A stretch of DNA of 64,000 bases from an uncultured Ruminococcus sp. (GTDB lineage Bacteria > Bacillota > Clostridia > UBA1212). This document shows positions 2,949 to 62,960 of this stretch, piece by piece. Under the pieces are notes generated by a model. The model was not told where the DNA came from. It made no database searches and worked only from the letters and a program-made list of their open reading frames with translations. Location of the stretch: NCBI GenBank assembly GCA_902792515.1, contig CADAZX010000001.1:72441-136440 (forward strand), given 5' to 3'. The translations under genes were made by a program, and so were the position numbers. Within the stretch, counting starts at the first letter, position 1. Each line of letters opens with the position of its first letter.

Positions 2949-2965
2949 GTTTTTTCTCCTTTTCC

Positions 2966-3078
2966 CGCGAAGTTACACAACCGTTCTTGTTTGCGCGAAG
3001 TTACGCAACCGTTCTTGTTTGCGCGAAGTCAAACGACCGTTCTTGTTTGCGCGAAGTCAAACGACCGTCTCTATAAAG
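2966..3078. repeat. Tandem 28-bp direct repeat (cgcgaagtyamacraccgttcttgtttg), about 4 copies. The last copy is degenerate and overlaps the stop codon of the 3057..6281 gene.
   Basis: Read directly: unit copies at 2966-2993, 2994-3021, 3022-3049 and 3050-3078, with 2-4 substitutions between copies. Confidence 0.85.
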
Positions 3079-13453: not shown

Positions 13454-14227
13454 TCAGGCCTCCTGCAGCGGGTAGAGAAGCCCGATCTGCCTCTCCGCAA
13501 AAAACTCCGTCCACTCGATGCCCGGGTTCCTGTCCGTGACAACTATGTCCACGTCCTCGACCTTGCAGATTTCCACCAGCGACACCCGGTTGAACTTCGT
13601 ACTGTCGATCGCGAGAATTTTCGTCCTCGCCGCCCCGATTATCGCCTTTTTGATCTCCGCGTCCTCGTCGTTCGAGTCCGTCAGACCGTTGCGCATGTCG
13701 ATTCCCTTGCACGAAAATATCGCGTAGTCAACGTGGAACGACTTTATCGCCTCGACCGCCCGCGCCCCGACGAACGCGTAGCCGCCCTCCTTGAGCATGC
13801 CCCCTGTCGCGAAAACCCTCCAAAACGGCTTGTCGCACAGCTCGCAAACGATCTCGGACGAATTCGTGATGACCGTCAGGTTCTTCCTGACCTTGAGCGC
13901 CTTGATCACGAAAAGCGCCGTCGAGCTGCCGTCGAGCATCACGTTCGAGCTCTCGGGAATGATATCCCCGGTCACGTTCGCTATCGCCTGCTTGAGTTCC
14001 ACGTTCGACAGCTTTCTGACCGAATACGGCAGGTCGACGTCCGAGCTCTCCGCCAAAACCGCGCCGCCGTAGATTTTCCTCGCGACGCCCTCGTTTTCAA
14101 GCTTGAGAAGGTCTCTCCTGACGGTCTCCTCCGTAACGTCAAAATGCGTCGCAAGGTCGCTGACTATTACCTTTTTCTCTTTCTGAAGCAAGTCCTTAAT
14201 GTACTGCTTCCTCTCGATTGCCAGCAT
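13454..14227 (-). CDS. DeoR/GlpR-family transcriptional regulator
   Basis: N-terminal HTH (RKQYIKDLLQKEKKVIVSDLATHFDVTEETVRRDL) plus a C-terminal DeoR sugar-binding domain. Confidence 0.9.
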   Translation of the reverse strand: MLAIERKQYIKDLLQKEKKVIVSDLATHFDVTEETVRRDLLKLENEGVARKIYGGAVLAESSDVDLPYSVRKLSNVELKQAIANVTGDIIPESSNVMLDGSSTALFVIKALKVRKNLTVITNSSEIVCELCDKPFWRVFATGGMLKEGGYAFVGARAVEAIKSFHVDYAIFSCKGIDMRNGLTDSNDEDAEIKKAIIGAARTKILAIDSTKFNRVSLVEICKVEDVDIVVTDRNPGIEWTEFFAERQIGLLYPLQEA

Positions 14228-14266
14228 CTCTGAAACGCGCCTGCTCTTTCTTCTGTAAAATCCGAT

Positions 14267-14391
14267 GTGTCTCCGCTTGGTCTCCGGTTTAGCTGCCGCA
14301 CTTACCTTAATTCAACGACGCCGCAGCTTTATGTTGGCGGCATGAACGATTCCGCGAAGCGGTCAAGTGAAGGACGCAACTTAAAGTGCGG
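14267..14391. repeat. Intergenic modular repeat, copy A (block X 14267-14295 plus hairpin block Y 14320-14391)
   Basis: Block X is near-identical to 25857-25887. Block Y is near-identical to 25941-26012 and to the reverse complement of 47030-47107. Y has a long imperfect stem enclosing ccgc-gaa-gcgg. Confidence 0.8.
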
Positions 14392-14619
14392 CTGATAATT
14401 TTAGTTGTGTCTACAGCCGGAAATCTGCTGTCCCGAAAATCTGCGCTCTGGAAACTGCAAAGTCCGGAGCTATTTTTGCGTGCGGTCGTCCGAAGCTGTA
14501 CGAAGGTACTGCGAGCGGCGACCTCGCGCAAAGCAGTTTGCCGGGCAATCGCCATAGGCCCCTTATTTTTATATTACAATTCGGCAAACTGCGTAAAGAG
14601 CCCGGAATCTGCAGTTTCC

Positions 14620-15180
14620 TTAGACTATGGTTTCCCAGAGCTTCTTGTCCGGGCGAGGAATGATCGCGCTGTCGAGGCACATGCCTTCCTCCGCGACCGT
14701 CGCTATCGCCTTTTCCACCGCCGCCGTAACCGCCGCCACGTCGCCGGTAAAGAGTACGTACGACTTTCCGGCCATACCGTTCGCGAGCCTCAGCTCAACG
14801 AGCCGGACCTCCGCGGTTTTCGCCGCCACATCAGCCGCGACGATTGCGCCGGCTACCGAAAAAGTCTCAACGATTCCGAGCGCCTCGACCTCTCCGAACT
14901 CCGCGGCACCGAACATTGCCGAGAAGATCGACTCGTGCGGGTTGCCGAGCACGAAGCTGTCCACGAGCATTTCCGGGAAATTCGTTTTCGCCGCTTCGAT
15001 CGCGGCCTTCACGCTTCCGAGCCTTCCCGAGACGAGAATCACGTACTTTCCGGGGCAAACCGGGTGCGCGTCAAGCACCTCGACCTCGGCCGCCTTGATA
15101 AGGATATCGGCCGCTTTGAGACCCGTTGAAATCGTTCTGTATTCGACTAAGCCAATTGCACTGCTCATACCGGTTTTCAC
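14620..15180 (-). CDS. pduT: Tandem-domain BMC-T shell protein, PduT-like
   Basis: Two Pfam00936-type BMC domains. EMLVDSFVLGNPH, GIVETFSVAG and IPRPD motifs, and a Cys in the first domain (HPVCPGKY), match PduT. Confidence 0.8.
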   Translation of the reverse strand: MKTGMSSAIGLVEYRTISTGLKAADILIKAAEVEVLDAHPVCPGKYVILVSGRLGSVKAAIEAAKTNFPEMLVDSFVLGNPHESIFSAMFGAAEFGEVEALGIVETFSVAGAIVAADVAAKTAEVRLVELRLANGMAGKSYVLFTGDVAAVTAAVEKAIATVAEEGMCLDSAIIPRPDKKLWETIV

Positions 15181-18074: not shown

Positions 18075-18353
18075 TTACTTCAGTACGGGAAGAATTCTCT
18101 CGACGTCGTTGTGAGGTCTGGGGATCACGTGGGTGGCTACGAGTTCGCCGAGCTTGGCAGCGTTTGCGCCGCCGGCTTCAACAGCGGATTTAACGGCGCC
18201 GACGTCGCCTCTTACCATAACGGTAACGAGTCCGGAACCGATCTTCTCGGTGCCGACAAGTTCAACGTTAGCAGCTTTGAGCATTGCATCGGCCGCTTCG
18301 ATCGCAGCTGTAAGTCCTCTTGTTTCAACCATTCCTAAAGCCTGTTGTACCAT
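18075..18353 (-). CDS. BMC-H shell protein (PduA/PduJ-like). The start was probably miscalled in the ORF track, which gives an upstream Lys-rich extension to 18494.
   Basis: [30 protein letters not shown]...IPRPH. A strong RBS AAGGAGG lies immediately upstream of the internal ATG at 18351-18353. Confidence 0.85.
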
Positions 18354-18498
18354 TTTCTTTTCCTCCTTAATTGTTTCAACATTTCCGCTTCCCGCGGATT
18401 CAGTTTTGATTTCTTTTACATTCGGAGCCGCCGGCTTCTTTACGTCAGCCTTCGGCTTTCCGGTGTTTGCCGGTGTTTTCTTAGTTTCTGCCATAATG

Positions 18499-18950: not shown

Positions 18951-19229
18951 TTATTTCGCCTGGGGAAGGATCTTCTCCACGTCGTTGTGCGGTCTCGGAA
19001 TAACATGAACCGCTATGAGCTCGCCGAGTTTGCCTGCGTTTGCGGCGCCGACTTCGGTAGCCGCCTTAACAGCCGCGACGTCGCCTCTTACCATAACGGT
19101 AACGAGTCCGGAGCCGATCTTCTCGGTGCCGATGAGGGTGACCTCTGCCGCTTTAACCATTGCGTCGGCCGCTTCGATAGCCGCTGTAAGACCTCTGGTC
19201 TCAACCATGCCCAATGCTTCCTGTACCAT
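18951..19229 (-). CDS. BMC-H shell protein (PduA/PduJ-like), paralogue of 18075..18353
   Basis: [30 protein letters not shown]...IPRPH. RBS GGAGG lies before the ATG at 19227-19229. The track ORF extends upstream, probably spuriously. Confidence 0.85.
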
Positions 19230-19377
19230 AACATTTACCTCCATTAGAATTTCAAGTTGTTTCACTCTGCCGGGTCTTGCGCTCCGTCTGCGTTCCGCGT
19301 CGCTTTTCGCACCGGAAACGTCATTTTCGCGCATGCCCGAAAATAATTACATTGCCGTTCCGCCGCCCGCCTCAAGG

Positions 19378-19692: not shown

Positions 19693-19927
19693 TTTCGTAA
19701 AATTCTCCGGGTTTTAATCTTTTCCTCCCCGCGGCAGTCCGCCGTTTTTAGGAAGGACGTTATTTTCTGCAGCGGGCATTCTCGAAAATCCTCAAACCGG
19801 GAATCCGGGAACGCTCTGCCGCTCATTCAAAGTCAGCCGGTCTTTTTAAGGGAATGCGCTCTTACGCTTGACATCAAATATTCGCCGCTTGCGTAAAGAG
19901 CATTAAATCTCTGCATTTCCGTGCCGG

Positions 19928-24961: not shown

Positions 24962-25753
24962 TTATCCTCCGATCTGGCATCTCAGGCCGCTCTTTTTCGC
25001 GACCTCCAGAAGCGATTCCATGTACGACTGCGACATCGGCTCGATTCCGTCCAGAAGGTATTCCCTGCCGAGTCCCGTGTACTTGTCCTGCCCGAGCCTG
25101 TGGTACGGAAGCAGGTGGAGCTGCTCAACGCCGGGAAGCGAGGCCGCGAACGTCGCGATCTGCCTTATCTCCTCGGGCGTGTTGTTGAACGTCGGGATGA
25201 CCGGCACCCTTATAATAAGCTCGACGTCGCTCTCCGCGACCTTGCGCGCGTTTTCGAGAATGCGCGTGTTCGGCTTCCCGGTGAACTCCTCGTGCTTTCT
25301 CGGGTCCATGTGCTTGATGTCCATCAAATAAGTGTCGAGGTAAGGGAGAAGCTTTTGGATGTTTTCGAACGGCAGCGTCGCGGCCGACTCGATCGCGGTG
25401 TTGATTCCGTTCTCCTTGGCAGCCCTCAGAAGCGCCGCCGCGAAGTCCGGCTGGCAGAGGCACTCGCCTCCGGAAAGCGTCAGACCTCCGTTCGAGTTCC
25501 GGTAGTAGTCGCCGTCCTTCATGACCTCTTCCATGACTTCAGCCACGGTGACGTCCCTGCCGATTATTTTTTTCTTGCCGGCTACGGTCATCTCCTGGAT
25601 CTTGTACTCCTGGGACTCCGGGTTGCAGCACCATCTGCATCTCAAGACGCAGCCCTTCAAAAAGACTATCGTCCTGATGCCGGTGCCGTCGTGGATCGAA
25701 TATCTCTGGATGTCGAAAATCCTTCCGGTCTGCTGCATGTAGTTGTCGTTCAT
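24962..25753 (-). CDS. Glycyl-radical-enzyme activating enzyme (radical SAM, PflA family)
   Basis: CxxxCxxC radical-SAM motif (CVLRCRWCCNP), glycine-rich SAM motif (LTLSGGECL), ~263 aa. It lies 289 nt downstream of the glycyl radical enzyme. Confidence 0.9.
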   Translation of the reverse strand: MNDNYMQQTGRIFDIQRYSIHDGTGIRTIVFLKGCVLRCRWCCNPESQEYKIQEMTVAGKKKIIGRDVTVAEVMEEVMKDGDYYRNSNGGLTLSGGECLCQPDFAAALLRAAKENGINTAIESAATLPFENIQKLLPYLDTYLMDIKHMDPRKHEEFTGKPNTRILENARKVAESDVELIIRVPVIPTFNNTPEEIRQIATFAASLPGVEQLHLLPYHRLGQDKYTGLGREYLLDGIEPMSQSYMESLLEVAKKSGLRCQIGG

Positions 25754-25829
25754 TGTCGGTTGATTTTTCCTTGAGTTTCAGTGTTTTCCGCTGCTTTGGA
25801 AGCAGTTGTTCGTTGAAATCGCCAGGTTT

Positions 25830-26027
25830 CGAGCTATTTTCGCGTGCGCGGACCCGCGTGTGTCTCCGCTTGGTCTCCGGTTTAGCTGGCGCTAAAAGTC
25901 GCCCTCGCGCGAGACGCACGCGATTCTACCTTATAAACGTCGACGCAGCTTGATATTGCGACATGAACGATTCCGCGTTAGCGGTCAAGTGAGGGACGCA
26001 ACATAAAGTGCGGACTGCGTAAAGAGC
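25830..26027. repeat. Intergenic modular repeat, copy B (blocks Z, X, Y, W), lying between the glycyl radical enzyme and its activase
   Basis: Z 25830-25851, X 25857-25887, Y 25941-26012, W (ctgcgtaaagagc) 26015-26027. The blocks match copies at 14267-14600. Confidence 0.8.
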
Positions 26028-26042
26028 CGAAAGCCGGCGATT

Positions 26043-28571
26043 TTAGAAATTGTTAGCCTGAGTCGTCCTCGAAATAATGTCGTCCTGGAGGGATCTGGAA
26101 AGCGTCGTGAACAGCGCGCTGTATCCCGCGACCCTTACCACGAGCGCTTTGTACTTCTCGGGGTGCTGCTGAGCGTCGAGCAGCGTCTCGCGGCTGACCA
26201 CGTTGAACTGCACGTGCATGCCCTTTCTGTTGAAGTACGTTCTCAGGTAGGTGATGAAGTCGTTGATGCCCTTCGGGCCCGAGAGCGCCGACGGGTGGAA
26301 CTTCTGGTTGTAGAGAGTTCCGTTGGAGGCGATCAGGTGGTCGATCTTCGCGACCGAGTTTGCCGCCGCCGTGGGTCCGAGCTTGTCCCTGCCCTGTGCG
26401 GGGCCGATGCCGTCCGCGATAGGAGCCTGCGAAAGTCTGCCGTCGGGAGTCGCGCACGACTGGGCGCCGAGCGGAACGTTCGCGGAGACCGGATAGAGGC
26501 CCGCCTGGAAGATGCCGCCGCGAGGATTCCTGAACGTCTCAAGCGGCTTTGTGTATGTGTACGCGACGTCTCTCGCGAAAAGGTCGATCTCGTCGATGTC
26601 GTTGCCGTACTTGGGAAGCGCCTCGATGTCGTCGAGCATCTTTTCGTAGAAATCGACACGCTCTTTGGGGAGCTGCTTGGATGCCGCCGCGCTCGCGTAT
26701 ACCGCCTTGATGACTTCGGGGGTGATCTCCCTGCCGTCCTTGGCGAGCTTAGCGCAGACCGTCTTCACGATGTGCTCCATATCGAGCGGCGTGAGCCCTT
26801 TTCCGAAGTTGTCCGCCATAGCCTGCTTGAAATCGGCCATCGTGTACTTTTTCTCCTCGAAAACGAGCTTTTTGATCGCGAACAGGCCGTCCGCGACGTT
26901 GGCGATACCGAAGCCTTGAGGGCCGGTGAAGTTGTAGATCGCTCCGCCCTCTTCCACGCACTTGCCGGATTCGAAGCACCCGTCTGTGAGGCAGGACTCG
27001 AACGGAAGCGGGCTTCTCTGAGCGTGGGCGTAATCTATCGCGTTGATTGCGTTTACCATCAGCGCGATGGAGGTTGTCATCTGCTTCTTGTAGGCGTTGT
27101 AGAGCTCGTCGAACGTAGTCATCTTGAGCACGTCGCCCGTCTCGACAGTTACAAGCTCGCCGTCCTCCCAGCCGTTCGTGAACGTGAGCTCGAGAGGTCT
27201 GAGCATGTTGAAGAACGCCGCGTCGTGCCAGCCGTCGGTCTTGCCCGGAACCTGGGGCTCCACGCAGCCGATAATGTTGTACTCGCGCGCCTCTTCAAGC
27301 GGAATTCCGCGGTTCATGAGGGCGGGAATGATGACCTCGTCGTTGTAGTAAGCCGGGAGGCCGATACCGGTTCTGGTGAGCTCGACCGCCTTCACAAGGA
27401 TCTCGTGGGGCGTTCCGTTCCAGATCCTGATGGAAAGAGAAGGCATCGGCAGTCCGGTGTGCATGGAAGCTTCGATGCACATCGCGGAAAGGTCGTTCGT
27501 GACGTCCTTGCCGTCCCTGTCCTGGCCGCTTACGATCAGGTTCTGGAAGAGGCTGTAGCCGGCGAATCCCTCCGCGGAAGCGGCGTCGCGGCACTTGTTG
27601 AGGTCGTTCAGCTTGATCCAGATGCAGTCGAGAAGCTCCTGCGCGGACTCTCTCGTGATCGTACCTGCGTCGAGGTCCTTTTTATAATAAGGATACATAT
27701 ACTGGTCGAATCTTCCGGGCGAGATCGAGTGGCCGCTCGACTCAAGCTGGAGGAGCTGCTGCACGAACCAGAAAGCCTGGCACGCCTCGTGGAACGACTT
27801 GGCCGGATTCTCGGGAACGTTGCGGCACACCTGCGCGATCTTAAGCAGGTCGGTGCGCCTCTCGCCGCTCGCGGACTGAGCCATTTTCTCAGCCAGATCA
27901 GCGTATCTGTTGGCATATCTGATGACCGCCTTGCAGCTTCTGATGACCGCCTCATAGAAGATCCTGCGCTTGCACGCGTCTGCCTTGCCTACGCACATCT
28001 CCGCCATTTCCTTTTCGGCTCTCGCGATGACGCCCTTGAGGCCCTCGCCGAGAACGGTCCAGTATGTGACCGTGATGTGGCCGATGCCGTTGTAGAAATA
28101 GTTGCCCGGCGTGAAAATGTTGTGGTTAATCGCCCTGAGAGCTCTCGGGTCCATAAACGCCGTCGCGAGCTCGCTTGTAGTCTTGTTCTTCCAGTACTTG
28201 TCCGCCTCCGCGATCCTGCGCTTGGCGTCTTCGCTGATATTGAACGGGTCCGCCTTTCTGTCGGCGACGGTGTCGAACTCCGCCTCGAGCCACTCGTACG
28301 AGAACTCCGGATAAGTCTGGCAGCCTCTCATTTTAATCGTGGTGCTGCCGACGATGAGTTCGTCGTCGCGGATGACGATCGGAATGTTGTCCAGAATGTG
28401 CTCGAACGCCCTCGATTTCCTCTCCACCTCGGGAAGGTTCTCGGTAGCTTTGTACGACTCTGTAATAAGTTCAGCCCTCGCCGGCTCAATCTCCGGTTTA
28501 GCATTATAAAAGGCGTCAAGGAGTCTGTCGATTCTGGCGGTCTTTTTGATTGGGCTCGTATCGAAATTCAT
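26043..28571 (-). CDS. Glycyl radical enzyme, probable B12-independent 1,2-propanediol dehydratase (PFL2/glycerol-dehydratase class)
   Basis: 842 aa. Glycine-radical motif RVAGYSALF near the C-terminus. Eliminase-type active-site loop GCVEP. N-terminal region (ELITESYKATE...AFEHIL...IRDDELIVGSTT) and the internal WFVQQLLQLESSGHSISPGRFDQYMYPYY block match remembered diol-dehydratase sequences. Confidence 0.7.
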   Translation of the reverse strand: MNFDTSPIKKTARIDRLLDAFYNAKPEIEPARAELITESYKATENLPEVERKSRAFEHILDNIPIVIRDDELIVGSTTIKMRGCQTYPEFSYEWLEAEFDTVADRKADPFNISEDAKRRIAEADKYWKNKTTSELATAFMDPRALRAINHNIFTPGNYFYNGIGHITVTYWTVLGEGLKGVIARAEKEMAEMCVGKADACKRRIFYEAVIRSCKAVIRYANRYADLAEKMAQSASGERRTDLLKIAQVCRNVPENPAKSFHEACQAFWFVQQLLQLESSGHSISPGRFDQYMYPYYKKDLDAGTITRESAQELLDCIWIKLNDLNKCRDAASAEGFAGYSLFQNLIVSGQDRDGKDVTNDLSAMCIEASMHTGLPMPSLSIRIWNGTPHEILVKAVELTRTGIGLPAYYNDEVIIPALMNRGIPLEEAREYNIIGCVEPQVPGKTDGWHDAAFFNMLRPLELTFTNGWEDGELVTVETGDVLKMTTFDELYNAYKKQMTTSIALMVNAINAIDYAHAQRSPLPFESCLTDGCFESGKCVEEGGAIYNFTGPQGFGIANVADGLFAIKKLVFEEKKYTMADFKQAMADNFGKGLTPLDMEHIVKTVCAKLAKDGREITPEVIKAVYASAAASKQLPKERVDFYEKMLDDIEALPKYGNDIDEIDLFARDVAYTYTKPLETFRNPRGGIFQAGLYPVSANVPLGAQSCATPDGRLSQAPIADGIGPAQGRDKLGPTAAANSVAKIDHLIASNGTLYNQKFHPSALSGPKGINDFITYLRTYFNRKGMHVQFNVVSRETLLDAQQHPEKYKALVVRVAGYSALFTTLSRSLQDDIISRTTQANNF

Positions 28572-28796
28572 GTCATTCCTCCGTACTTTTCCTTCAAGGG
28601 CGCGTTTTCCGCCCCCTGTCTCAGCTATATATCGTTTTAAAAACGCTTTTCATCTTTAGAAAGCTCTAATTTAACGGCAAACTGCGATAACAAGTATATT
28701 GTAACCCGTTTGCCGCTTGCGCAAAGAGCATTTAATCGGCGTTTCCTTCGGAAAATACCGCAAGGCATAGTAAGGCCTATTACGGAAACTACATAT

Positions 28797-30875: not shown

Positions 30876-31949
30876 TCAGTCTTTAAAACACAACCACATC
30901 GCGGGTCGGACACCGGTATCGAGTTGTTGCAGTAAGCCGCCGTATGCCGGCATAACGCCCGCCGGGTCAACGACTGCCATGCCCGAGGTCTTCTGCGGGG
31001 GGGCGAAAGGATTCGTCTGTTCCATGGCGTGCGCCGGATTGCGGGTCCACCAGTAGCTCGCGAGTTCACCGTCCGTGGTCTTATCATATTCCGCTACGTA
31101 CAGTCCCTTTGACTTAGCGTAAGGAGTCCCCGCGCACCTCCTTGCCTCGTATGAATTGAAATATGTTTCGACTTCGAGCATGCTCAGGAGAAATAACCGG
31201 TCGTATGTACTGTTTCCCGGGTCGAGATTGGGATCATCGGGATTTTCGGTATTCTTGTCCGCCGGAACATGCGAAAGTTGTATCGACGACCGCTCTTCCG
31301 GAGTGAACGCACCGTTGAGGAACGTACTGCTTAGCCACTCGCGCAGGTCGCACGTCTCCCATTTCTGCTTATCCTTGTCCGAGCCGGTGTTGACAGGCTG
31401 ACAATCGAGTATGTATTTGCTTACAAGAAGCGCCTTGTTGTCAGCTTTCTTCAAAACCAGCCATTCGATTTTTTCTTTCCCGTTGCCGGCGTTGTTGTCC
31501 TGCTCGTACGATCCGAATTTGATAATGTCGCCGGCCTTTAAATTTTTGTACACTGATAGTGACAGAGGATTAGGCGTCGGCGTAGGAGTAGGCGTGGGAG
31601 TCGGTGTCGGCGTGGGCGTCGGTGTCGGCGTAGGAGTAGGGGTAGGCGTGGGCGTCGGCGTCGGTGTCGGTGTAGGCGTGGGCGTCGGCGTACACTCTGT
31701 GGGGGCAATATCAAGCCAAGATCCTGTAGACGCAGGCGTCGGTTTCGAAGTAATCTCCGGCGTTATCTCCGGCGTGACTCCCTCCGTAACCTCCGGCAGC
31801 TTTGTGGCACCTGGCGTATTCAAAGCCGCAACCTCTTCGGTGTTCTGCGGCGGCGTGAAAGGCAGACAGCCCGCGAGCATTATAACGGCCAGAAGAAGAA
31901 CAGCCGGCAGTATTGCACGTTTCCGCCTCATATTCGTGGTGTTAAACAT
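30876..31949 (-). CDS. Lipoprotein with a (TP)n linker and a C-terminal DUF6273-like domain
   Basis: Start reassigned to MFNTTNMRRKRAILPAVLLLAVIMLAGC (RBS AAAGGAGG, lipobox LAGC). A (TP)30-type linker and a C-terminal GDIIKFGSYEQDN...IEWLVL...YWWTRNP...VRPAMWL domain follow. The upstream part of track ORF 30876..32123 is non-coding repeat DNA. Confidence 0.65.
   Translation of the reverse strand: MFNTTNMRRKRAILPAVLLLAVIMLAGCLPFTPPQNTEEVAALNTPGATKLPEVTEGVTPEITPEITSKPTPASTGSWLDIAPTECTPTPTPTPTPTPTPTPTPTPTPTPTPTPTPTPTPTPTPTPNPLSLSVYKNLKAGDIIKFGSYEQDNNAGNGKEKIEWLVLKKADNKALLVSKYILDCQPVNTGSDKDKQKWETCDLREWLSSTFLNGAFTPEERSSIQLSHVPADKNTENPDDPNLDPGNSTYDRLFLLSMLEVETYFNSYEARRCAGTPYAKSKGLYVAEYDKTTDGELASYWWTRNPAHAMEQTNPFAPPQKTSGMAVVDPAGVMPAYGGLLQQLDTGVRPAMWLCFKD
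31561..31700. repeat. Coding hexanucleotide microsatellite (GGCGTN)n encoding the (TP)n linker
   Basis: About 23 tandem units ggcgtc/ggcgta/ggagta/ggtgtc, read directly. Confidence 0.85.
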
Positions 31950-31975
31950 GTGATCGCCTCCTTTAAAATCATCAG

Positions 31976-32035
31976 TTTGGGAAGTATCAGTCTGAGAAGT
32001 ATCAGTTTGAGAAGTATCAGTCCGAAAAGTATTCG
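31976..32035. repeat. 15-bp tandem direct repeat (gaagtatcagtytga), about 3.5 copies, upstream of the lipoprotein gene
   Basis: ttgggaagtatcagtctgagaagtatcagtttgagaagtatcagtccgaaaagtattcg. Confidence 0.8.
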
Positions 32036-32041
32036 CGAACC

Positions 32042-32524
32042 TCAGCCGCGAACCATTCTTATCACGGTCACGGGGGTCCCGATCACGAGCTCCTGCTCGA
32101 ATCCGTCCCTCACGAAGCCGCACTTTTCATAAAATCTGATTGCGCGCGCGTTGTTTTTCAGCACCCTTACGAACGCGCGCTTCCCTTCAAGCTTTTCAAG
32201 TCCGGCGTCCATCAGCGCCATGCCGATGCCGGTCCCATAGTACTCCGGAAGAACATACAATGCATAAATTTCCCCCGCGCCGGGAAGGTCTTCGACTCTG
32301 CCCTCCCCGTAGGCGCAAAAGCCTGCGACCTTTTCGCCGACCTTGGCGACAAGAGTGTTTTCTGGGTATTTGAACGCCGCCGCGGTGCACTTTTCGAGCG
32401 TCAGCGCTTCAAGGTACGATGCGTCGACGAGCCCCCTGTACGCCTCCTGCCACGATTTCCAGTGCACGTACGCCTTCCCGGCGATCTCGCCGTCCGTCTC
32501 CATTTTTTTGATCTCGAATTCCAC
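32042..32524 (-). CDS. GNAT-family N-acetyltransferase
   Basis: Acetyl-CoA binding motif (YVLPEYYGTGIGMAL), ~160 aa. Confidence 0.85.
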   Translation of the reverse strand: MEFEIKKMETDGEIAGKAYVHWKSWQEAYRGLVDASYLEALTLEKCTAAAFKYPENTLVAKVGEKVAGFCAYGEGRVEDLPGAGEIYALYVLPEYYGTGIGMALMDAGLEKLEGKRAFVRVLKNNARAIRFYEKCGFVRDGFEQELVIGTPVTVIRMVRG

Positions 32525-46892: not shown

Positions 46893-46913
46893 GACTTGTA
46901 ACAATATGAGTTA

Positions 46914-46962
46914 GGGCGGCTCCCGCAACTGTTTCGGTTGCGCGGGGCCGCCCTTCTTTTCG
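46914..46962 (+). terminator. Rho-independent terminator of the 43991-46892 operon
   Basis: GGGCGGCTCCCGC...GCGGGGCCGCCC hairpin followed by ttcttttcgttt. Confidence 0.75.
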
Positions 46963-47029
46963 TTTATTCCGTTTTTTCAACTCAGGTAAACGCTGAGTTA
47001 ATAGCTATTTTTTCGAGCGCGACCCCGAA

Positions 47030-47107
47030 GCCGCATTTTATGTTGCGGCCCTCACTTGACCGCTTCGCGGAATCGTTCATGCCGCCAACATAAAACTGTA
47101 CGCGGCT
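47030..47107. repeat. Intergenic modular repeat, copy C (block Y in inverted orientation)
   Basis: The reverse complement of 47030-47107 aligns with 14320-14391 and 25941-26012. The W block (ccgcttgcgtaaagagcatttaatc) lies at 47238-47262. Confidence 0.8.
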
Positions 47108-47261
47108 CTACTGCGAAAGGGGAGCTCTCGAAAAGCAAGCGGCCAGCAATCGTCACAAGACACATTATTCTCTCTGGAGATAGTCGAAGTTAACGAACTA
47201 CGGTCAAATACGCCCATACGCTGGCTGTCAGATCTTCGCCGCTTGCGTAAAGAGCATTTAA

Positions 47262-47846
47262 TCAGCGTTTACACACGAAAAGCCCGTGCCTGTTGCAGTA
47301 CACGAAAAAGTACCTTGTCCCGTTTATGCCAAACCTCGCCTCGGCGGGTCCCTCGGGGTATAGTTTCTTCATCTCGCAGCAGTCGTCGCGAACCGCCGCG
47401 ATGAACGAAACGTAGTGGTTTTTCGTCATTTCATGGCCGGCCGTGACGAAATACTCGTCCTCGATCCGCTGAACCGCGACCGCATGGCCTTCGTCCGGGT
47501 CCGACGCCTCAAGCGGCGGAAGAGTGATCCCGCAGCAGCTGACCACCGCCTCGCCGACGCTTGTAATGACGTTCCCGCACACCGGGCACACGTAGAATTT
47601 CATTTTCAGCAGGTTGAAAGCCCTGTTTTTGTTGACAACGCCGCACCCCTTGAAGAGTTCGATGACCGACACTCCGAGCGCCGCCGCGAGCGGTTCCAGA
47701 AGCGTAATGTCCGGGTAGCCGCGTCCTGTCTCCCACTTGGAAACGGTTTTGTCGCTGACGAAAATCCTCTCCGCGAGCTGCGCCTGCGTCATCCCGCGCT
47801 CTTCCCTGAGGCGCTTGATCATAGTTCCGGTAACGTACTGATCCAT
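47262..47846 (-). CDS. XRE-family HTH domain fused to a desulfoferrodoxin-like (superoxide reductase) module
   Basis: Start reassigned to MDQYVTG (RBS AAGGAGGG). The N-terminus has a Cro/C1 HTH (MTQAQLAERIFVSDKTVSKWETG). The C-terminus carries a desulforedoxin-like CPVCGNVI...SCCG motif and a neelaredoxin-like HxxH...H...YCNRHGLF iron site. Confidence 0.6.
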   Translation of the reverse strand: MDQYVTGTMIKRLREERGMTQAQLAERIFVSDKTVSKWETGRGYPDITLLEPLAAALGVSVIELFKGCGVVNKNRAFNLLKMKFYVCPVCGNVITSVGEAVVSCCGITLPPLEASDPDEGHAVAVQRIEDEYFVTAGHEMTKNHYVSFIAAVRDDCCEMKKLYPEGPAEARFGINGTRYFFVYCNRHGLFVCKR

Positions 47847-50135: not shown

Positions 50136-51467
50136 TCATTTACTGCGCAAATAGTCTTTTAAGAGAAACACAAGATAATGAGGGAATGATCGTATATTAC
50201 CTTCCACACCGATATTACCATCAATCAATTTGATGCCAAAGTGAATATCCGGATATGAATCACTCTTAATCAATGTACGGAGCGATTTACTATTTCCGTT
50301 TCTGGCCTTAACCTCTACCGGAATAAGGGTTTCAGTATTACGAACAAAGAAATCTTCTTCTAAAGTAGAGTTTTCTTTTGAATAATAATACAGGTCAAAC
50401 CCTGCCTTAACCAGCATATCTCCTACTATATTTTCATATAGTCCCCCTCGATAGGTTCCTATGTTTTTGCGGCTTCTCAGATCCTCCTGAGTTTCATCGT
50501 CAAGCATTGCAATCAGCAAACCGGTATCTGCCATATAAATCTTGTATTTTGTTTCATCATAGTTCCCCTTAAGGGGAAGTTCAGGGTAATTCAAGCAATA
50601 ACACACATTGATGATCCCGGCATTTGACAGCCACTCTATTGCCCCTCTGTAGTCCTTAAACCTGGCGCCTGAAGCAACTTTACTGATCTGGAATTTTTTG
50701 TTTTCTTTTGCTAACTGAACCGGTATATGTCTGAATACATTAAGAATTCGGCTTTGGTCCAATCCTTCCGCATATTTTGTAATATCCTCCTCATAGTCGG
50801 ACAATAGTTGCCTTTGAAGCTCCAATGTATTTGAAAACATACCGTTTCTGACATATTCCAAAACTACTGCCGGCATTCCTCCAACTATTACATAATCCAA
50901 AAAAGCTTCCGCCATAACCTGTACCAATGAAGCCTGTAGCGGAGTTCCGTCCTGCATTGCTTTAAAAAGATCTGCCTTCAATCCGTCATCATAACCTTTG
51001 GCCCATAAAAACTCTTCAAAATCCAACGATCTCAAAGTGTAATCGGTTTTATATCCAACACTATTGCTCTCAATCTTCTTGTAATAAACTCCAAGCAACG
51101 AGCCGCTGCAAATCACATCATAACGCCTGTCAATGCAGTATGCCTTTAGTGTGGTTGCAATGTCCGGATGATCTTGTATTTCATCAAAAAAAATCAGAGT
51201 TTTTCCCTCAATAAATTTCTTAGAAGGATCTATCCGGCTGATTGCTTTATTGACTGTCTCCACAGTGTATCCATCTTCGGTGATTACGCAATATTTCTTC
51301 TCCAATGCAAAATTGATATATATGATGTTGTCATAAAAACCTTTAGCGAAACGCATTATACTTTCGGTCTTCCCAACCTGTCTGGCACCTTTAATGATCA
51401 ATGGCTTTCGGTTCGGGTTTTCATGCCACTCACTTAAGATTTTATCCACCTTACGCTTTAAGTACAT
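50136..51467 (-). CDS. AAA+ ATPase with a DUF4143-type C-terminal domain (AAA_14/DUF4143 family)
   Basis: Start reassigned to MYLKRKVDKI (RBS GAGGAGG). Walker A GARQVGKTE and Walker B IFFDEIQ. Low GC. Confidence 0.75.
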   Translation of the reverse strand: MYLKRKVDKILSEWHENPNRKPLIIKGARQVGKTESIMRFAKGFYDNIIYINFALEKKYCVITEDGYTVETVNKAISRIDPSKKFIEGKTLIFFDEIQDHPDIATTLKAYCIDRRYDVICSGSLLGVYYKKIESNSVGYKTDYTLRSLDFEEFLWAKGYDDGLKADLFKAMQDGTPLQASLVQVMAEAFLDYVIVGGMPAVVLEYVRNGMFSNTLELQRQLLSDYEEDITKYAEGLDQSRILNVFRHIPVQLAKENKKFQISKVASGARFKDYRGAIEWLSNAGIINVCYCLNYPELPLKGNYDETKYKIYMADTGLLIAMLDDETQEDLRSRKNIGTYRGGLYENIVGDMLVKAGFDLYYYSKENSTLEEDFFVRNTETLIPVEVKARNGNSKSLRTLIKSDSYPDIHFGIKLIDGNIGVEGNIRSFPHYLVFLLKDYLRSK

Positions 51468-51896
51468 AATAGGACCTCCTCTCAATCTAAATAGTATTAT
51501 AGAGCAACAGCGATAATTTTTCAACTATTTTATGAGCGAGTTAGTCGCGGGTTTTGCATTTTTATGAGCGTGTTTTTATGTTCCCACACCTTTTTATGTC
51601 AAAAAAGGCCTCGCCGCATCACAGCATCACAGCAAAGTCCTAAAAACCGCTTGTATAAAATTTAATGTATATAAAAAATGTTGTATTGGAGTCCGTATTG
51701 ATTGGTTACTTAAGGGTGCAATTAAGGTGCAAACTCACGATCAAAACAGCTCTCAAAGCTTGATATTTAAGGCTTTTCACCGCTCGGTTGGTAGAGTGCC
51801 GTGGCAGACGAACAGTATCTTAATCATATCGTTTTCATGTTTTATCGGGGTTTGGATGCCTTTCTATACCCGGATTCCTGCATTATTAATTATCGT

Positions 51897-53195
51897 TTAT
51901 CTTAATACTGCCCATTTCCCGGTTTTATTTCCACCACGACGTTCAATCACCTTTTTCCTCTTTAATGCTGCAAGTATTTTTCTTATATATCCGTCAGAGT
52001 ATCCACTTGCAGCAACCATTTCCTTTATCGTGATACCGGAATTATGACTTATATAATCGATAACTCGCCGCTCCGCATCATTAATACTGATTTTATTATC
52101 AGGCTCAGTTACACTATTGTCATTTTTCTCATAATTAAACGGAATAGTTACATTAACAAAGTTCTCCGTAATATCAAAAGCCTGCTTTCCATAATTACTA
52201 ATTATAAGAGGAACGCCATGACCTGTTTGTTCCACGTATCCCAATTGACCGAATATCTTTTGAAGTTTGGAATTAACCGGCTTACTTATTCCTTTGAAAA
52301 ACTCTTCCTTATTTAAATCTACAGGTAATCCTCCCGTAGAAATGATTTCTATTCTATCTGAAAAAACGTAAACCGCCGGTGGATTCCCTTTTATCCATTT
52401 CGTATGAATACATGCATTTTGCCAAGCTTCTTTAAAACTGGCCATGTCAAAAAGTCTTTCTTCTATTCGTCTGTGATTGCCCATCGTGACCATAGTTTCA
52501 TTAACGGATTCCATGTAATCCAACACTCTATCCATAGCGGTAACGAGACATGTTCCTCCGTATTCGTTTCTCTTTATTAGAACTGTCTTATCTTTTCCTG
52601 CAAAAGTAACCACTTTGATTGAGATGTCATTTTCGTCAGCAAGCAAAAAAGCCATTAGATTATACTTCCCATCGCTGTTTTTCAGCCCGGTATTATCTTC
52701 GAAAGTTGTTTGGTCGACTGTCAGCCCCGCCGTTACAAAAGCAATTTTGAGTTTATTAAAAGTAAGCGTCTGAACAGGCGCCGGAACCAAAGTCAAAACA
52801 TCTGATGATGCTTGTCTGTCTATTAACTCCTTTAATGCTGTCGGACTCAATTCTCTATCTTCATCCGCAGATCGCATATAATAGCGTCCATATGCCGAGT
52901 ATGGTTTTTCAGAGCCACGTACTTCAATCTTAATTACGTTTTTATCATCTATCAATCCATGTTCTATAATTGGTATAATCTGCGGTTTAATGAAATTTGC
53001 TATTGCCTGGGATATTTCTCTAAGCGTTCTATCACCCATTTGTTGACCAACTACGTCCCCATTGTCCTTAACCCCAAAATACAGAATTCCATATCCATTC
53101 TTGTTGAGCATAGAAGCCAATGAAGTGATTCCTTCCCGGAGTTCTCCCGTTGTCCTCTTAAACTCTATTTTTTCAGTCTCCACTCCTATATTCAC
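51897..53195 (-). CDS. AlbA_2 / Schlafen-like divergent AAA domain protein with a C-terminal wHTH (putative ATP-dependent DNA-binding regulator)
   Basis: Probable GTG start (RBS AGGAGG) giving MNIGVETEKIEFKRTTGEL. The N-terminal AlbA_2-type motif (ESE.IEFK) and the C-terminal GYIRKILAALKRKKVIERRG HTH-like segment are present. Low GC. Confidence 0.65.
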   Translation of the reverse strand: MNIGVETEKIEFKRTTGELREGITSLASMLNKNGYGILYFGVKDNGDVVGQQMGDRTLREISQAIANFIKPQIIPIIEHGLIDDKNVIKIEVRGSEKPYSAYGRYYMRSADEDRELSPTALKELIDRQASSDVLTLVPAPVQTLTFNKLKIAFVTAGLTVDQTTFEDNTGLKNSDGKYNLMAFLLADENDISIKVVTFAGKDKTVLIKRNEYGGTCLVTAMDRVLDYMESVNETMVTMGNHRRIEERLFDMASFKEAWQNACIHTKWIKGNPPAVYVFSDRIEIISTGGLPVDLNKEEFFKGISKPVNSKLQKIFGQLGYVEQTGHGVPLIISNYGKQAFDITENFVNVTIPFNYEKNDNSVTEPDNKISINDAERRVIDYISHNSGITIKEMVAASGYSDGYIRKILAALKRKKVIERRGGNKTGKWAVLR

Positions 53196-53512
53196 TGCTC
53201 CACGCCTCCTAAACATCAATTGTTGGATTTGAACAGTTTTTCGCTTGCTTGGTCAGCTAACTGCTCTCCGCTATTTTGAATTATACTCCATTTGCTTTCT
53301 TTTTGCTACTCTTTTTTGCCACTTTATTTGCTACTTTATTTGCCACTTTAATTACTACCAACCCGGGTTTCTTTTCAACATCTGCTGCCGTTGCCATAAA
53401 AGAAACTAACCAAATAAGTACCGTTTCTTAAATACCCGGCTTTATATCGCCGCAGGTATAAAGAAACAGCAGCCGGAACGAACAGAACCCTCATCATAGA
53501 ATCAAATTCCTA

Positions 53513-60050: not shown

Positions 60051-60821
60051 CTATTCAATGCCTGTCTCGATATATTTTCCGAGCATTTCCCCGGCTCTCG
60101 CGACCTCCTCCGCCGCCGGCGGAGACGTTTTCGCGAAAACGTACTCGCGCCCCATGGCCTTGTACTTCGCGCTGCCCAGGCGGTGGAACGGTATCAGGTC
60201 CGCGTGTTTTACGCCGGCTTCGAGCAGCGTCGAGAGGATCAGCCGGAGCTCCCCGTCCGACGTGTTGACGCCGGGAATGAACGGAATCCGCGCCGTCACG
60301 TTCGCGCCGCATGCAACGAGCTTTTTGAGGTTCGAAACGATCAGGTCGAAGTCGCCGCCCGTGACCGAGGCGTACTTTTCGCGCGAACCCGCTTTAATAT
60401 CGTAGTAAAAAGCGTTCACGCTGCCGAGCACCACCTCGAAATTCCGCCACGGAACGCACCCGGCCGTATCGACAAGCGTGCTTATCCCGCGCTCTTTCAG
60501 GATCGCCGCGAGCTCCGCGACGCCCTCGTACTGGAGCATCGGCTCGCCGCCGCTCACGGTGACGCCGCCTCCTCCCGCATTGTAAAAATCCGCGTCCTCC
60601 GACACGTCGTCTGCGACCTCCAACGGCGTCATAAGTTTTCCGTAGGTGACCGTTTTGCCGGCCGCCGCGAAAACGAGCGTCTCGGGCTTCGCGGAGATGT
60701 TTTCCGGGTTGTGGCACCACGGGCAGCGCAGGTTGCAGCCTTTCAGGAAAACGGTCGTCCTGATGCCGGGGCCGTCGCCCGTCGAGAACCGCTGTATGTT
60801 GCTGACGTTCAGAACTGCCAT
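60051..60821 (-). CDS. Second glycyl-radical-enzyme activating enzyme (radical SAM)
   Basis: CNLRCPWCHNPE radical-SAM motif and VTVSGGEP SAM motif. Its start lies 3 nt from the stop of the upstream short glycyl radical enzyme. Confidence 0.9.
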   Translation of the reverse strand: MAVLNVSNIQRFSTGDGPGIRTTVFLKGCNLRCPWCHNPENISAKPETLVFAAAGKTVTYGKLMTPLEVADDVSEDADFYNAGGGGVTVSGGEPMLQYEGVAELAAILKERGISTLVDTAGCVPWRNFEVVLGSVNAFYYDIKAGSREKYASVTGGDFDLIVSNLKKLVACGANVTARIPFIPGVNTSDGELRLILSTLLEAGVKHADLIPFHRLGSAKYKAMGREYVFAKTSPPAAEEVARAGEMLGKYIETGIE

Positions 60822-60824
60822 GGT

Positions 60825-62960
60825 TTAAACTTCTTCATGCTGGGTGCGGCTCAGAATGTCCTCCTGCACCTCGTCCGCTAGCGTCACGTACAGCGCCGAA
60901 AAGCCGGAAACGCGCACCACGAGCGACTGATAGTTCTCGGGGTGGATCCTGGCGTCCTGAAGCACCTCGCGCGACGTGGAGTTGATCTGGATCTCCTGGC
61001 CGCCGCGGGAAAAATACACCCTTATCAGCTGCGCGAGCTTTTCGCGCTTGCCGTCCTTGAAAGCGGAGGGTGAAAACTTCTGGTTGACGACGGAGCCGCA
61101 GGCGCAGCGCGTGTAGTCGGGTTTGGAGACGCTCAGAAGCGTCGACGTGACGCCTTTTACGTCGCAGCCGTACGTCGGCGAGGCGGCGTCGGAAAGAGGC
61201 CTTCCGGCGAGCCTTCCGTCGGGTGTGGCGCCGAGTCCGTGGCCTGCGTAAATGTTCGACACGTTGGCCGCCTGTGCCGTGTAGACAGGTCCGCCGTCAA
61301 GAGTCGTGTACCTGTCGAACATGTCGGAAAGCGTGCTCGTGTACCACACCGCGTACTTGTCGACGAACGCGTCGTTGTTCCCGTACTTCGGCGCGGCCAG
61401 CACCGTCTCTCTGATGTCCCCGTAGCCTTCATAATTGGCCTTAATTGCCGCCGCGAGCGTCGAGAGGGGTATTTTCCTGTCCTCGAACACAACGCGCTCT
61501 ATGGCTGCGAGAGAGTCGCTGACGGTGCCTATGCCCATAAGCGCCGCGCCGTGCGCCGACGGATACTTCGCGCCTCCCATGTTAATGTCGCGTCCCCTCT
61601 CGATGCAGCATTGGCAGAAGCACGACAAAAAAGGTGCCGTCATGTTTTCCGGCTCGGCCACGAACTGGCCTCGCCTCATCCACTCAATATAATTTTCAAC
61701 GCCCTCTTTGAGCCGCTCCTCGTAGATCCTCATGAACGCGTCCATCGACTCTATCGAATCGAGTTCCTCCGCGGTTTTACCCACGAGAATCGCCTCAAGA
61801 TAGTTGATCGGGTCGAACCTGCCGTCCGACCACGGGGGCTGCATGCCGGTGATGAAATTCTCGATGCAGCCAACCATGCAGTAGTTTCTGACGTCCTTAA
61901 GCTCGTAGCCCTTTCTGAGAAGCGCCGCCATATTGACCGTGTCGTTCATCAGAGCCGGGTATCCGAGACCCGTGCCGATGACCTTCAGGCACTCGTCCAG
62001 GAATTCGTCCGGACAGTCCGGAGTGATCCTCGCGGAAAGGTTCGGTCCGGGAAGGTTCACGTCTCTCACCGCGCGCAGAACGCAGTACGACAGCCCGTTC
62101 ACCGAGCACACGCCCTCTTCGTCGACGCCGCCGATGCAGATGTTGACAACGTCGTCGCAGCCCCTGTACCTGAACTCGCAGATCTTCGCGAACGTGTTGG
62201 CGACAAGCTCCTCGCAGCGTTCGTCCGTAAGCGTTCCGTTCGCGATATCCTTCAAATAGAGCGGATAAAGGTAGCGGTCGATCCTTCCGAGAGCCATCGC
62301 GTACCTGCCCTCGAGCACGAAGCAGTTGTGGATCATCCACACAAGCTGAAGCCCCTGCGCGAACGTCCCCGGCGCACCCTCAAGAAGCGCCCGCATGTTG
62401 CCCGCGATAAAATCGAGCTTCTCCGCGTCGTACCCCTCCGCGCCTTTCAGCGATTCGGCCTTTTCCGCGTAGTTTTCGATGCGCTTCAAAAGTCCCTCGA
62501 GCGTCCGCTTCATCGCCTTCAAAAAGCCTGTCGCCTCCGCGTCGCCCGCGTGCTTCTCCGCCGAAGCGTCGATGTCGCGAATCATTCCCGGGATGCCCTT
62601 TTCGACAGCCGTGAAATAGTCTGCCGCGTAGTGGTCGGTGTTGCACGAAAACGTGCGTTCCGGGTATTTTGCGAAAACCGCCGCCGCGCGCCCGCGCTCG
62701 TCGTCAGGCACCTCGAGAATTACGTCTCTGAGGCTGCCCGCGATCAGGTCGTTTTTATAAATATGCGGCTCCGGCATGGCGAAAAGCGCGTAAAGCCCGT
62801 CCGCGCGAACGTTCGCGTTAATTGTATTTGCACTCTCCGAAAGGCCGCGCGCCCTGAATATCTCAGGGCAGAAAACCCCCTTCGGGAAGCTCAGAATCTC
62901 ACTTTTCAGTTCGGAAATATTACTCACAGTGTGCTCCGTTTCCGCGCGGCTTGCGCGCAT
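60825..62960 (-). CDS. Second, unusually short (~700 aa) glycyl radical enzyme of the eliminase/dehydratase class, substrate unknown
   Basis: C-terminal glycine-radical motif RVSGFSALYVTL. Thiyl-loop GCIENF (Cys-x-Glu, as in dehydratases/lyases). The N-terminus is ~100-140 aa shorter than typical members. A GTG start with RBS GGAG is possible, which would give MSNISELKSE. Confidence 0.75.
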   Translation of the reverse strand: MRASRAETEHTVSNISELKSEILSFPKGVFCPEIFRARGLSESANTINANVRADGLYALFAMPEPHIYKNDLIAGSLRDVILEVPDDERGRAAAVFAKYPERTFSCNTDHYAADYFTAVEKGIPGMIRDIDASAEKHAGDAEATGFLKAMKRTLEGLLKRIENYAEKAESLKGAEGYDAEKLDFIAGNMRALLEGAPGTFAQGLQLVWMIHNCFVLEGRYAMALGRIDRYLYPLYLKDIANGTLTDERCEELVANTFAKICEFRYRGCDDVVNICIGGVDEEGVCSVNGLSYCVLRAVRDVNLPGPNLSARITPDCPDEFLDECLKVIGTGLGYPALMNDTVNMAALLRKGYELKDVRNYCMVGCIENFITGMQPPWSDGRFDPINYLEAILVGKTAEELDSIESMDAFMRIYEERLKEGVENYIEWMRRGQFVAEPENMTAPFLSCFCQCCIERGRDINMGGAKYPSAHGAALMGIGTVSDSLAAIERVVFEDRKIPLSTLAAAIKANYEGYGDIRETVLAAPKYGNNDAFVDKYAVWYTSTLSDMFDRYTTLDGGPVYTAQAANVSNIYAGHGLGATPDGRLAGRPLSDAASPTYGCDVKGVTSTLLSVSKPDYTRCACGSVVNQKFSPSAFKDGKREKLAQLIRVYFSRGGQEIQINSTSREVLQDARIHPENYQSLVVRVSGFSALYVTLADEVQEDILSRTQHEEV

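Follow-up and report, generated by a model that had tools for sequence, protein, structure and literature searches.

The locus described here raises the question of what occupies the space between the gene for a glycyl radical enzyme (GRE) and the gene for its activase, and whether this material affects the expression of the two genes. The window analysed is a stretch of 64,000 nucleotides (contig CADAZX010000001.1, positions 72,441 to 136,440) from an uncultured Ruminococcus sp. The GRE gene (26043-28571, minus strand; 842 aa; Pfam PFL-like E 7e-235, Gly_radical E 1e-35) ends with the stop codon TAA at 26043-26045, and the radical SAM activase gene (24962-25753, minus strand; 263 aa; Pfam Radical_SAM and Fer4_12) follows after a gap of 289 nt. 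The open reading frame (ORF) listing and Pfam analysis place this gap at exactly 25754-26042, as given in a preliminary description of the same DNA. Our analysis showed that the element in the spacer (copy B) is a non-coding, rearranged copy of a mosaic, strongly folding intergenic repeat family and that it extends from the GRE stop codon to 60 nt before the activase start. Overall, we favour, with a probability of roughly 0.6, a mosaic repeat that is co-transcribed as a block and acts, if at all, on mRNA stability or processing.

Copy B was compared with a covariance model (R1) built from four other copies, copy B itself being excluded. In cmsearch, model positions 1-168 aligned end to end with 25814-26045 on the plus strand, antisense to the operon (50.3 bits, E 9e-13), and nhmmer comparison with other copies gave E values from 1e-13 to 1e-41. 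The preliminary description regarded the gap as almost wholly repeat. A full-length, though rearranged, copy is indeed present, but its portion within the gap (25814-26042) makes up ~80%, and the other 60 nt (25754-25813, minus strand) are the native activase leader, which lies outside the repeat. This leader holds AAGGA 15-19 nt ahead of the ATG (25768-25772) and includes a small hairpin at 25790-25806. The plus-strand order of parts in copy B is P1 arm, Z, X, linker, Y, W and P1 arm, in agreement with the module order Z-X-Y-W proposed earlier. The Z-side P1 arm (25817-25831, GAAATCGCCAGGTTTCG) pairs with 26028-26042, and this P1 helix closes copy B in folds of both strands; P1 also covaries in other copies. 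The arm is followed on the plus strand by the Z box (25832-25848, AGCTATTTTCGCGTGCG), the X hairpin module (25856-25921), a linker with the motif ACCTTAT (25922-25943), the Y hairpin module (25944-26013), the W box (26016-26027, TGCGTAAAGAGC) and the W-side P1 arm (26028-26045), which adjoins and overlaps the GRE stop codon. On the mRNA strand the linker motif reads UAAGGU and resembles a ribosome-binding site (RBS). Both boxes occur more often in the window than in shuffled sequence, and only on the plus strand: four matches were found for Z (at most three mismatches; 0.22 expected) and five for W (at most one mismatch; 0.31 expected).

Analysis of the X and Y modules revealed close matches at other sites in the window and at other loci, which are denoted by L numbers. 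X (25859-25892) is 97% identical to 14266-14299, with 30 of 30 nt identical (within-window E 1.6e-11). The Y region (25927-26013) is 86% identical to 14303-14391 (within-window E 3e-19) and 87% identical, in inverted orientation, to 47098-47031 (within-window E 1.7e-14), and Y and X of copy B together show 92% identity to L011 and L012. The Y of copy B is chimeric, with a TTTATGTTG-type arm and a CAATATCAA-type arm. Because the two arms come from different Y subtypes its stem is mismatched; in L006 the arms are matched. The chimeric Y points to gene conversion, presumably from another copy. Y was rejected as coding sequence, as a 17-codon ORF of copy A is frame-shifted in copy B by a loop indel.

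The family has a common scaffold, which on the Z-to-W strand consists of the P1 5' arm, the Z box (AGCTATTTTTGCGTGCG), hairpin P2, the junction CTCGCGCAAAGCAG, hairpin P3, the W box (CTGCGTAAAGAGC) and the P1 3' arm. P2 carries CCGAAG...CTGCGAG, and the P3 loop contains AATCG, a 3-bp mini-hairpin (GYC-N3-4-GRC) and CCTTAT; the motif AATCG..GYC-N3-4-GRC..CCTTAT recurs in P3 and in the linkers of other copies. Intact cores of ~170 nt were found at 14450-14619 in the window, at 3540-3709 in L018 and at 1871-2039 in L031. RNAalifold analysis of an unfitted MAFFT alignment of four cores (in which L017 was edited by removal of a nested insertion) gave a three-way junction of 55 pairs, 23 of them compensatory. 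In this alignment 97.7% of cells are paired and every helix contributes compensatory pairs. Shuffled alignments gave 8.9 +/- 2.2 compensatory pairs, with none of 500 reaching 23, and the number dropped to 1-4 when the partners were slid by one to three columns. These changes prove a constraint on pairing, without specifying whether the paired molecule is RNA or DNA.

The Y hairpin has 20 consensus pairs, four of them compensatory, in an alignment of 11 copies. Its internal loops TCACTTGA and AATCGTTCATG are invariant, and a diverged Y copy in L031 has its apical stem swapped for a different stem. Neither X nor Y is an obligatory part of the family; both are accessory modules that nest in the core. 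Y occurs inside the P2 loop (copy C, L011-L016) or inside the X loop (L027, L016, L018) and in either orientation relative to Z-to-W. A second subtype of the family has P1 = CGCTGATTTAAT and a longer P3. Counts of G-U against A-C pairs are ~5 vs 4 in Y and ~6 vs 2-3 in the core; the Y counts are balanced, and the core counts weakly favour the Z-to-W strand.

Besides copy B the window contains four sites of this family, all on the plus strand. Site A (14252-14625) lies between a tandem bacterial microcompartment (BMC) shell gene (14620-15180, minus strand) and a DeoR gene (13454-14227, minus strand), and contains half of X plus Y (14266-14391) and the intact core mentioned above (A2; core score 186 bits). 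Copy C (46985-47273; 75.4 bits) is of the subtype with P1 = CGCTGATTTAAT and has Y nested in hairpin P2; model R1 also finds this copy, as well as the 239-nt allele described below. The fold of copy C has z-scores of -5.15 on the plus strand and -4.11 on the minus strand. Right before copy C, after a DUF6591 gene, lies a strong hairpin resembling a terminator, with a T run (46905-46960; GGGCGGCTCCCGCAAC...GTTGCGCGGGGCCGCCC TTCTTTTCG), and the look-up for polymorphism at copy C with the adjoining helix-turn-helix protein returned no record. The other two sites are degenerate remnants. One (19775-19920; nhmmer E 3e-07; W box at 19890) lies between a lactaldehyde-reductase-type alcohol dehydrogenase (ADH) gene and shell genes; the other (28671-28747; nhmmer E 8e-06 to 3e-05; W-like box at 28718) lies in the predicted GRE 5' untranslated region, between the candidate promoter and the GRE start. 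Both remnants are fixed in the three conspecific strains L003, L004 and L005, including one with an empty GRE-activase spacer. Four of the five family sites fall inside the microcompartment locus, which covers 27% of the window, a marginal enrichment (p ~0.02, binomial estimate).

Further copies were collected through exact Y-core pattern scans and strain variants of site A. The Y-core scan gave one match in species-representative genomes, in a metagenome-assembled genome (MAG) of Mageeibacillus sp. UBA1212 (L011), and matches in eight metagenome contigs. The hosts are 'Clostridia bacterium' MAGs, Oscillospiraceae-related by their UBA1212 label. No match was found for the whole window in Rfam 15 at the gathering score, and Rfam e-value scans around sites B, C and A gave only chance-level matches (E > 1). 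A scan for tRNA and tmRNA found none, and neither blastn of the full element L016 against plasmids and phages nor two pattern scans of viral contigs gave a match. We conclude that this is a previously undescribed family in an uncultured Clostridia species complex.

Comparison of contigs whose flanking genes are 92-100% identical in nucleotide sequence revealed six alleles of the GRE-activase gap, of 72, 96, 120, 150, 239 and 289 nt. Contigs of one alignment (A1) share 97.5-100% nucleotide identity in the GRE gene and 99-100% downstream of it. The 289-nt allele occurs in the window, L001, L002 and L007, with a 98% variant in L006. In the 239-nt allele (L003, L010) W, Y and Z are kept, the linker is another one and, in alignment A1, X is missing; in the 120-nt allele (L004, L008, L009) the W-side arm alone is left; the 72-nt allele (L005) has no element. 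Seven sister-lineage contigs also carry this empty 72-nt allele. The 150-nt allele (P1 and W, with a degenerate interior and a stub of Z) was found in seven sister-lineage contigs, and the 96-nt allele, with only a P1-like mini-hairpin AATCGC...GCGATT, in three. The two sister lineages show ~92% identity in the activase gene. Five of the six alleles were recovered in at least two independent assemblies, the exception being the 239-nt allele, for which both samples belong to a single study.

Every non-empty allele starts with AATCGC right after the GRE stop codon; the site was therefore occupied before the lineages split, and it is the interior that changed. The activase leader is wholly conserved in the 120-, 150-, 239- and 289-nt alleles, and only its proximal ~25-45 nt, AAGGA included, are common to the 72- and 96-nt alleles. 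Filled and empty alleles show synonymous differences in the last ~40 nt of the GRE gene, and synonymous divergence reaches the 3' ends of the flanking genes. Identity of the 72-nt lineage to the window is 97.6% upstream of the spacer but 94% downstream of it. Given this divergence and this split in identity, homologous recombination moves whole alleles between strains, and the spacer marks a breakpoint. The comparison of alleles showed that the interior of the element has been repeatedly reshaped by deletion, gain or loss of modules and gene conversion from other copies. Site A is also variable: next to an identical DeoR protein its length is 195 nt without the element (six contigs), 386 nt in the window, 435 nt in L027 and 631 nt in L031. 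A 49-nt indel lies within the site A repeat between the window and the L027/L001 contig, which is 100% identical to the window around the GRE-activase gap.

Syntenic loci of the same microcompartment type (GRM5) in other species, with 79-87% amino acid identity in the activase, have spacers of 19, ~104, 136 and 141 nt, unrelated to the one in the window; nhmmer detected nothing resembling the family in any part of the loci retrieved. The long spacers of these family-free relatives (136 nt, L020 3865-4000; 141 nt, L023 3860-4000) contain their own unrelated hairpins or G/C-tract motifs. The same spacer is thus not present in all relatives, and the six alleles and the unrelated spacers bear out the earlier proposal of an insertion; the spacer content is supported as an unstable insertion rather than an ancestral, fixed feature. 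That GRE and activase genes are usually adjacent holds only roughly. A second GRE gene in the window (60825-62960, minus strand; 711 aa) is separated by only 3 nt from its activase gene (60051-60821; 256 aa), yet in orthologous loci that lack the repeat the gap can be as long as 141 nt, and the 136- and 141-nt spacers in relatives lacking the family indicate that a long spacer is not unusual in GRM5 loci. The N-terminal regions of the two activase genes of the window are 73% identical over 97 nt.

Since six alleles (72-289 nt) coexist in one species complex, the repeat might be neutral selfish or junk DNA that leaves GRE and activase expression unaffected. Its fold would then be maintained through the way in which it spreads, or through correction between the arms of palindromes, and not for a host function. 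The degenerate state of copy B and the narrow distribution of the Y core, with its one species-representative genome match and eight metagenome contigs, speak in the same direction. Against this stand the compensatory changes in every helix of the core, the 3-bp mini-hairpin included, and the repeated placement of the element exactly at stop codons, which suggests constraint or specificity beyond drift. We regard the neutral explanation as unlikely, though one to be taken seriously. If it is correct, large structured inserts are tolerated at this junction, and recombination has its hot spot in the spacer.

Analysis of element positions showed that the W-side P1 arm begins at the stop codon of the upstream gene, in gene direction, at about six independent sites. 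The distance between stop codon and P1 is 0 nt at A2 (14619/14620) and L018b (3709/3710), 1 nt at L031a (1869-1871) and ~9 nt at L011; the two overlap by 2 nt at L013 (1269-1271), and overlap also at copy B (TAA), at L017 (983-985, in an EF-P-like gene) and at copy C. The reverse-oriented copies L012 and L014 end 20-30 nt before the next start codon. Orientation is also uniform: all five window sites read Z-to-W on the plus strand, which is C-rich (GC skew -0.06) and carries 18% of coding sequence, and across all loci eight of the 10 elements between co-directional genes are antisense to those genes. The anchoring at stop codons is a clue either to the mechanism of target choice or to a function linked to translation.

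The first of these alternatives is action at the level of DNA, with single-stranded hairpins serving a nuclease, transposase or recombinase (compare REP-RAYT and attC-integrase), or with a nucleoid protein binding the element. Target choice would in that case account for the position at stop codons. The uniform strand of the window sites and the prevailing orientation between co-directional genes, the asymmetric P1 mismatches and conserved Y internal loops kept across diverged copies, G-U and A-C counts that are symmetric, as if both strands mattered equally, and the nesting of modules, such as Y inside the X loop, are all in line with such action. On the other hand, the 29 window ORFs scanned include no gene for a transposase or recombinase, and no target-site duplication is visible flanking A2, B or L018b, boundaries there being set to within a few bases and the empty alleles being too diverged for an exact junction. 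Furthermore, variation lies at the outermost ends and conservation in the inner boxes, contrary to what classic terminal inverted repeats show. Action at the DNA level is rated as quite doubtful.

The genes around copy B form a microcompartment locus. In the window between 12 and 30 kb every gene in the ORF listing is on the minus strand. Downstream of the activase gene are genes for a BMC shell protein, PduV/EutP, a class II aldolase, a PduO-C-like protein, an aldehyde dehydrogenase and a zinc ADH, followed by shell genes and genes for a PduS-like protein, a tandem-BMC protein, the DeoR regulator and an Fe-ADH. The gene set that defines the GRM5 fucose/rhamnose microcompartment type is given in PMC6325248. 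The locus contains a GRE, an activase without the ferredoxin insert, a fuculose-phosphate aldolase (PF00596), a lactaldehyde reductase (PF08240 and PF00107), a PduS-type protein and BMC shell genes, and by gene set it matches this GRM5 type. The identical activase protein is encoded on 22 public contigs. With a candidate promoter for the operon at 28825-28797 (TTGACG-17-TATACT, minus strand) and the terminator of the gene upstream of the GRE gene at 29026-29007, the GRE gene is placed first in the operon; the 289-nt gap is therefore its first intercistronic spacer. In the shell-gene region a 293-nt direct repeat (18087-18379 and 18963-19255; 78% identity) probably reflects paralogous BMC shell genes.

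In the preliminary description the Y hairpin was considered as a stabiliser of the upstream transcript or as a partial terminator, lowering activase relative to the GRE, and a promoter within the element as the alternative. Stable hairpins do lie between the two genes, and small repeats elsewhere carry promoters, as reported for Correia repeats (PMC3184786). However, simple consensus scans of 25754-26042 found on the sense (minus) strand neither a hairpin followed by a U tract nor a sigma-70 match with 16-18 nt spacing. Copy B was hence rejected both as an intrinsic terminator or attenuator and as a sigma-70 promoter of the activase gene, and neither the terminator nor the promoter proposal is upheld. 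A terminator in the Y or X hairpin, or a promoter for the activase supplied by the element, is considered very unlikely. At site A the same scan gave no terminator or promoter match.

The sole sigma-70-like match in the spacer, TTGAAA-16-TATTTT at 25813-25840 on the plus strand, is formed by P1 and the Z box and directed antisense into the GRE gene. It might drive an independent small or antisense RNA from the plus strand, whose CCUUAU loop would pair with RBSs or which would be antisense to the GRE 3' end. In A2 and L018b inspection by eye shows similar hexamers, the Z-to-W strand is favoured by two U-G pairs that are conserved, and the P3 loop resembles the anti-Shine-Dalgarno sequence of 16S rRNA. 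Yet a transcript starting after the -10 hexamer would leave out the P1 5' arm, and P1 covaries; there is no terminator after W, the scan found no promoter at site A, and the second subtype is without the -35 hexamer. An independent RNA of this kind is highly improbable.

Folds of the junction, taken as the spacer plus 40 nt of each flanking gene, had predicted energies of -106.7, -82.9, -32.7 and -16.2 kcal/mol for the 289-, 239-, 120- and 72-nt alleles, respectively. In RNA fold predictions of these four alleles the activase leader is mostly unpaired, and on average the RBS region of the activase is unpaired with a probability that remains at 0.59-0.64. This predicted constancy of RBS accessibility is a further point for the neutral explanation.

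Our preferred reading remains that of a co-transcribed mosaic repeat. Copy B would be transcribed within the operon and fold into a closed multi-hairpin block that, according to the fold predictions, may leave the activase RBS free, and it would be neither terminator nor promoter. When a ribosome terminates at the stop codon of the GRE gene, it would cover the outer P1 helix and partly open it. The block, if it has an effect, could form a barrier to 3'-to-5' decay of the mRNA or a site of processing, and the stability of the GRE segment would thereby be altered relative to that of the activase segment, with a sign and size not predictable from sequence. By analogy, the likeliest effect would be on stability or processing of the GRE and activase segments of the mRNA. 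Stabilisation of the upstream transcript, as suggested in the preliminary description, would be a plausible effect. A small or null effect is about as likely, since six alleles coexist and copy B is decayed.

Several observations count against this preferred reading. The mRNA-strand fold of copy B (-97 kcal/mol, z = -2.47) only moderately beats shuffles, and the plus-strand fold has -100.5 kcal/mol with z = -0.82. Copy B is decayed, having lost hairpins P2 and P3 and carrying the chimeric Y. Strains do well with spacers from 72 to 289 nt, which speaks for a small or neutral effect. The covariation test comprises four sequences, including one from which an insertion had been cut out, and the G-U and A-C counts do not identify the folding strand. 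The alleles come from short-read metagenome assemblies, in which repeats can be mis-joined, although most of them recur in independent samples and with different assemblers. Lastly, every statement made above about RNA is read from DNA.

A more specific proposal is that the family, more than decaying selfish DNA, forms a new class of structured nucleic-acid element, a translation-sensitive RNA switch or processing signal at operon stop codons that sets the relative output of cistrons. It would combine the ~170-nt junction, the conserved internal loops, the anti-Shine-Dalgarno-like loop (RBS-like on the other strand) and the plug-in modules X and Y. We put this forward as speculative and probably wrong in its full form. 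If it were true, the ratio of GRE to activase would be tuned at copy B and the ratios of shell proteins to enzymes across the operon with its four copies, and the swapping of modules from strain to strain would amount to rapid regulatory variation. Microcompartment operons require very unequal amounts of shell proteins, signature enzyme and activase, and the means by which a single transcript provides them are poorly known. Structured inserts of 72-289 nt at one junction in otherwise near-identical strains constitute a natural allelic series for intercistronic structure. In addition, the family provides a well-defined repeat, modular and covarying, for the uncultured rumen-type Clostridia, from which hardly any such repeats have been described.

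Other features were observed elsewhere in the window. Between two minus-strand genes at 2957-3068 there are four head-to-tail copies of a 28-nt unit (TCTTGTTTGCGCGAAGTTACGCAACCGT). They were rejected as a CRISPR array, as no spacers separate the units. Short-period repeats (12/18 nt at 31548-31703; 15 nt at 31971-32030) lie within a DUF6273-domain gene (30876-32123), whose GC content at third codon positions (GC3, 0.58) is below that of its neighbours. Two adjoining genes at 50136-53219 have GC3 values of 0.39 and 0.33 vs ~0.75 elsewhere, and encode an AAA_14/DUF4143 ATPase and a Schlafen AlbA_2/HATPase_c_4/winged helix-turn-helix protein; this gene pair was probably acquired horizontally.

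The family was compared with known classes of repeats. In attC sites the structure of the outer helix is conserved over its sequence, the site lies directly after or overlaps the stop codon of the upstream gene, and orientation is uniform. The family shares these three properties. Unlike attC, it is much longer, has conserved internal boxes and shows no cassette organisation. An attC assignment was rejected: RYYYAAC/GTTRRRY sites are absent, the ends reading AATCGCC, GGAAACTGC or CGCTGATTT, and no integrase was found among the ORFs scanned. A classic MITE (a miniature transposable element with inverted repeats) was likewise rejected; the ends do pair through P1, but their outermost 10 bp vary from copy to copy with covariation, the conserved Z and W boxes lie further in, and target duplications are not visible. 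One MITE-like trait was observed, namely filled and empty sites in close relatives (72-289 nt at the copy B site, 195-631 nt at site A). The 29 window ORFs scanned contain no transposase, and no mobilising insertion sequence was identified for the family.

BOX elements are modular, with boxA, a variable number of boxB and boxC, and their end modules pair. The linear A-Bn-C arrangement differs from the nested hairpins in a junction seen here, the two being set apart by description. BOX elements of Streptococcus pneumoniae resemble the family in belonging to the same phylum, in being thought non-autonomous mobile elements, and in being transcribed and modulating their neighbours (PMC3184786). 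REP/BIME elements are like the family in being mosaics of palindromic units, located mostly downstream of coding regions, many of them transcribed, and variable between strains (PMC3733652; PMC3184786), and they too affect mRNA stability (PMC3184786). The survey of REP elements in PMC3733652 does not mention Clostridia. REP units differ in their length of 20-40 nt, stems of 8-9 bp, GTAG/CGTC tag and frequent link to RAYT. A REP/BIME assignment was rejected given the sizes of Y (70 nt), X (66 nt) and the core (170 nt) and the lack of GTAG; CGTCG is often present after Y, in an arrangement that is not REP-like. No RAYT was seen among the ORFs scanned in the 64-kb window.

Longer variants of ERIC arise through internal insertions. 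ERIC/IRU (127 bp) is similar to the family in being an imperfect palindrome in transcribed intergenic sequence with an orientation-dependent effect on the stability of upstream mRNA (PMC2229807). It differs in host phylum and in forming a single hairpin, whereas the family has a three-way junction with accessory hairpins, and the TA duplication is missing here; Rfam e-value scans of three stretches gave no match at E <= 10, the two being set apart without a direct comparison with ERIC. YPAL (RU-2) of Yersinia, at ~168 bp close to the core in size, is not A+T-rich, has internal inverted repeats, is co-transcribed with upstream genes, targets positions near dyad symmetry and shows filled and empty sites between close relatives (PMC2229807). 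It differs from the family in its target duplications of 3-26 bp, none being visible here, and is unrelated in sequence and host. ERIC, Correia and YPAL repeats are co-transcribed with their neighbours and alter mRNA stability, which in ERIC is proposed to involve ribosome-induced unfolding and in Correia repeats involves processing by RNase III (review PMC2229807). Overall, the element resembles the small structured intergenic repeats ERIC, BOX, REP/BIME, YPAL and Correia, and its notable features are the covarying three-way-junction core, the plug-in hairpins and the anchoring at stop codons.

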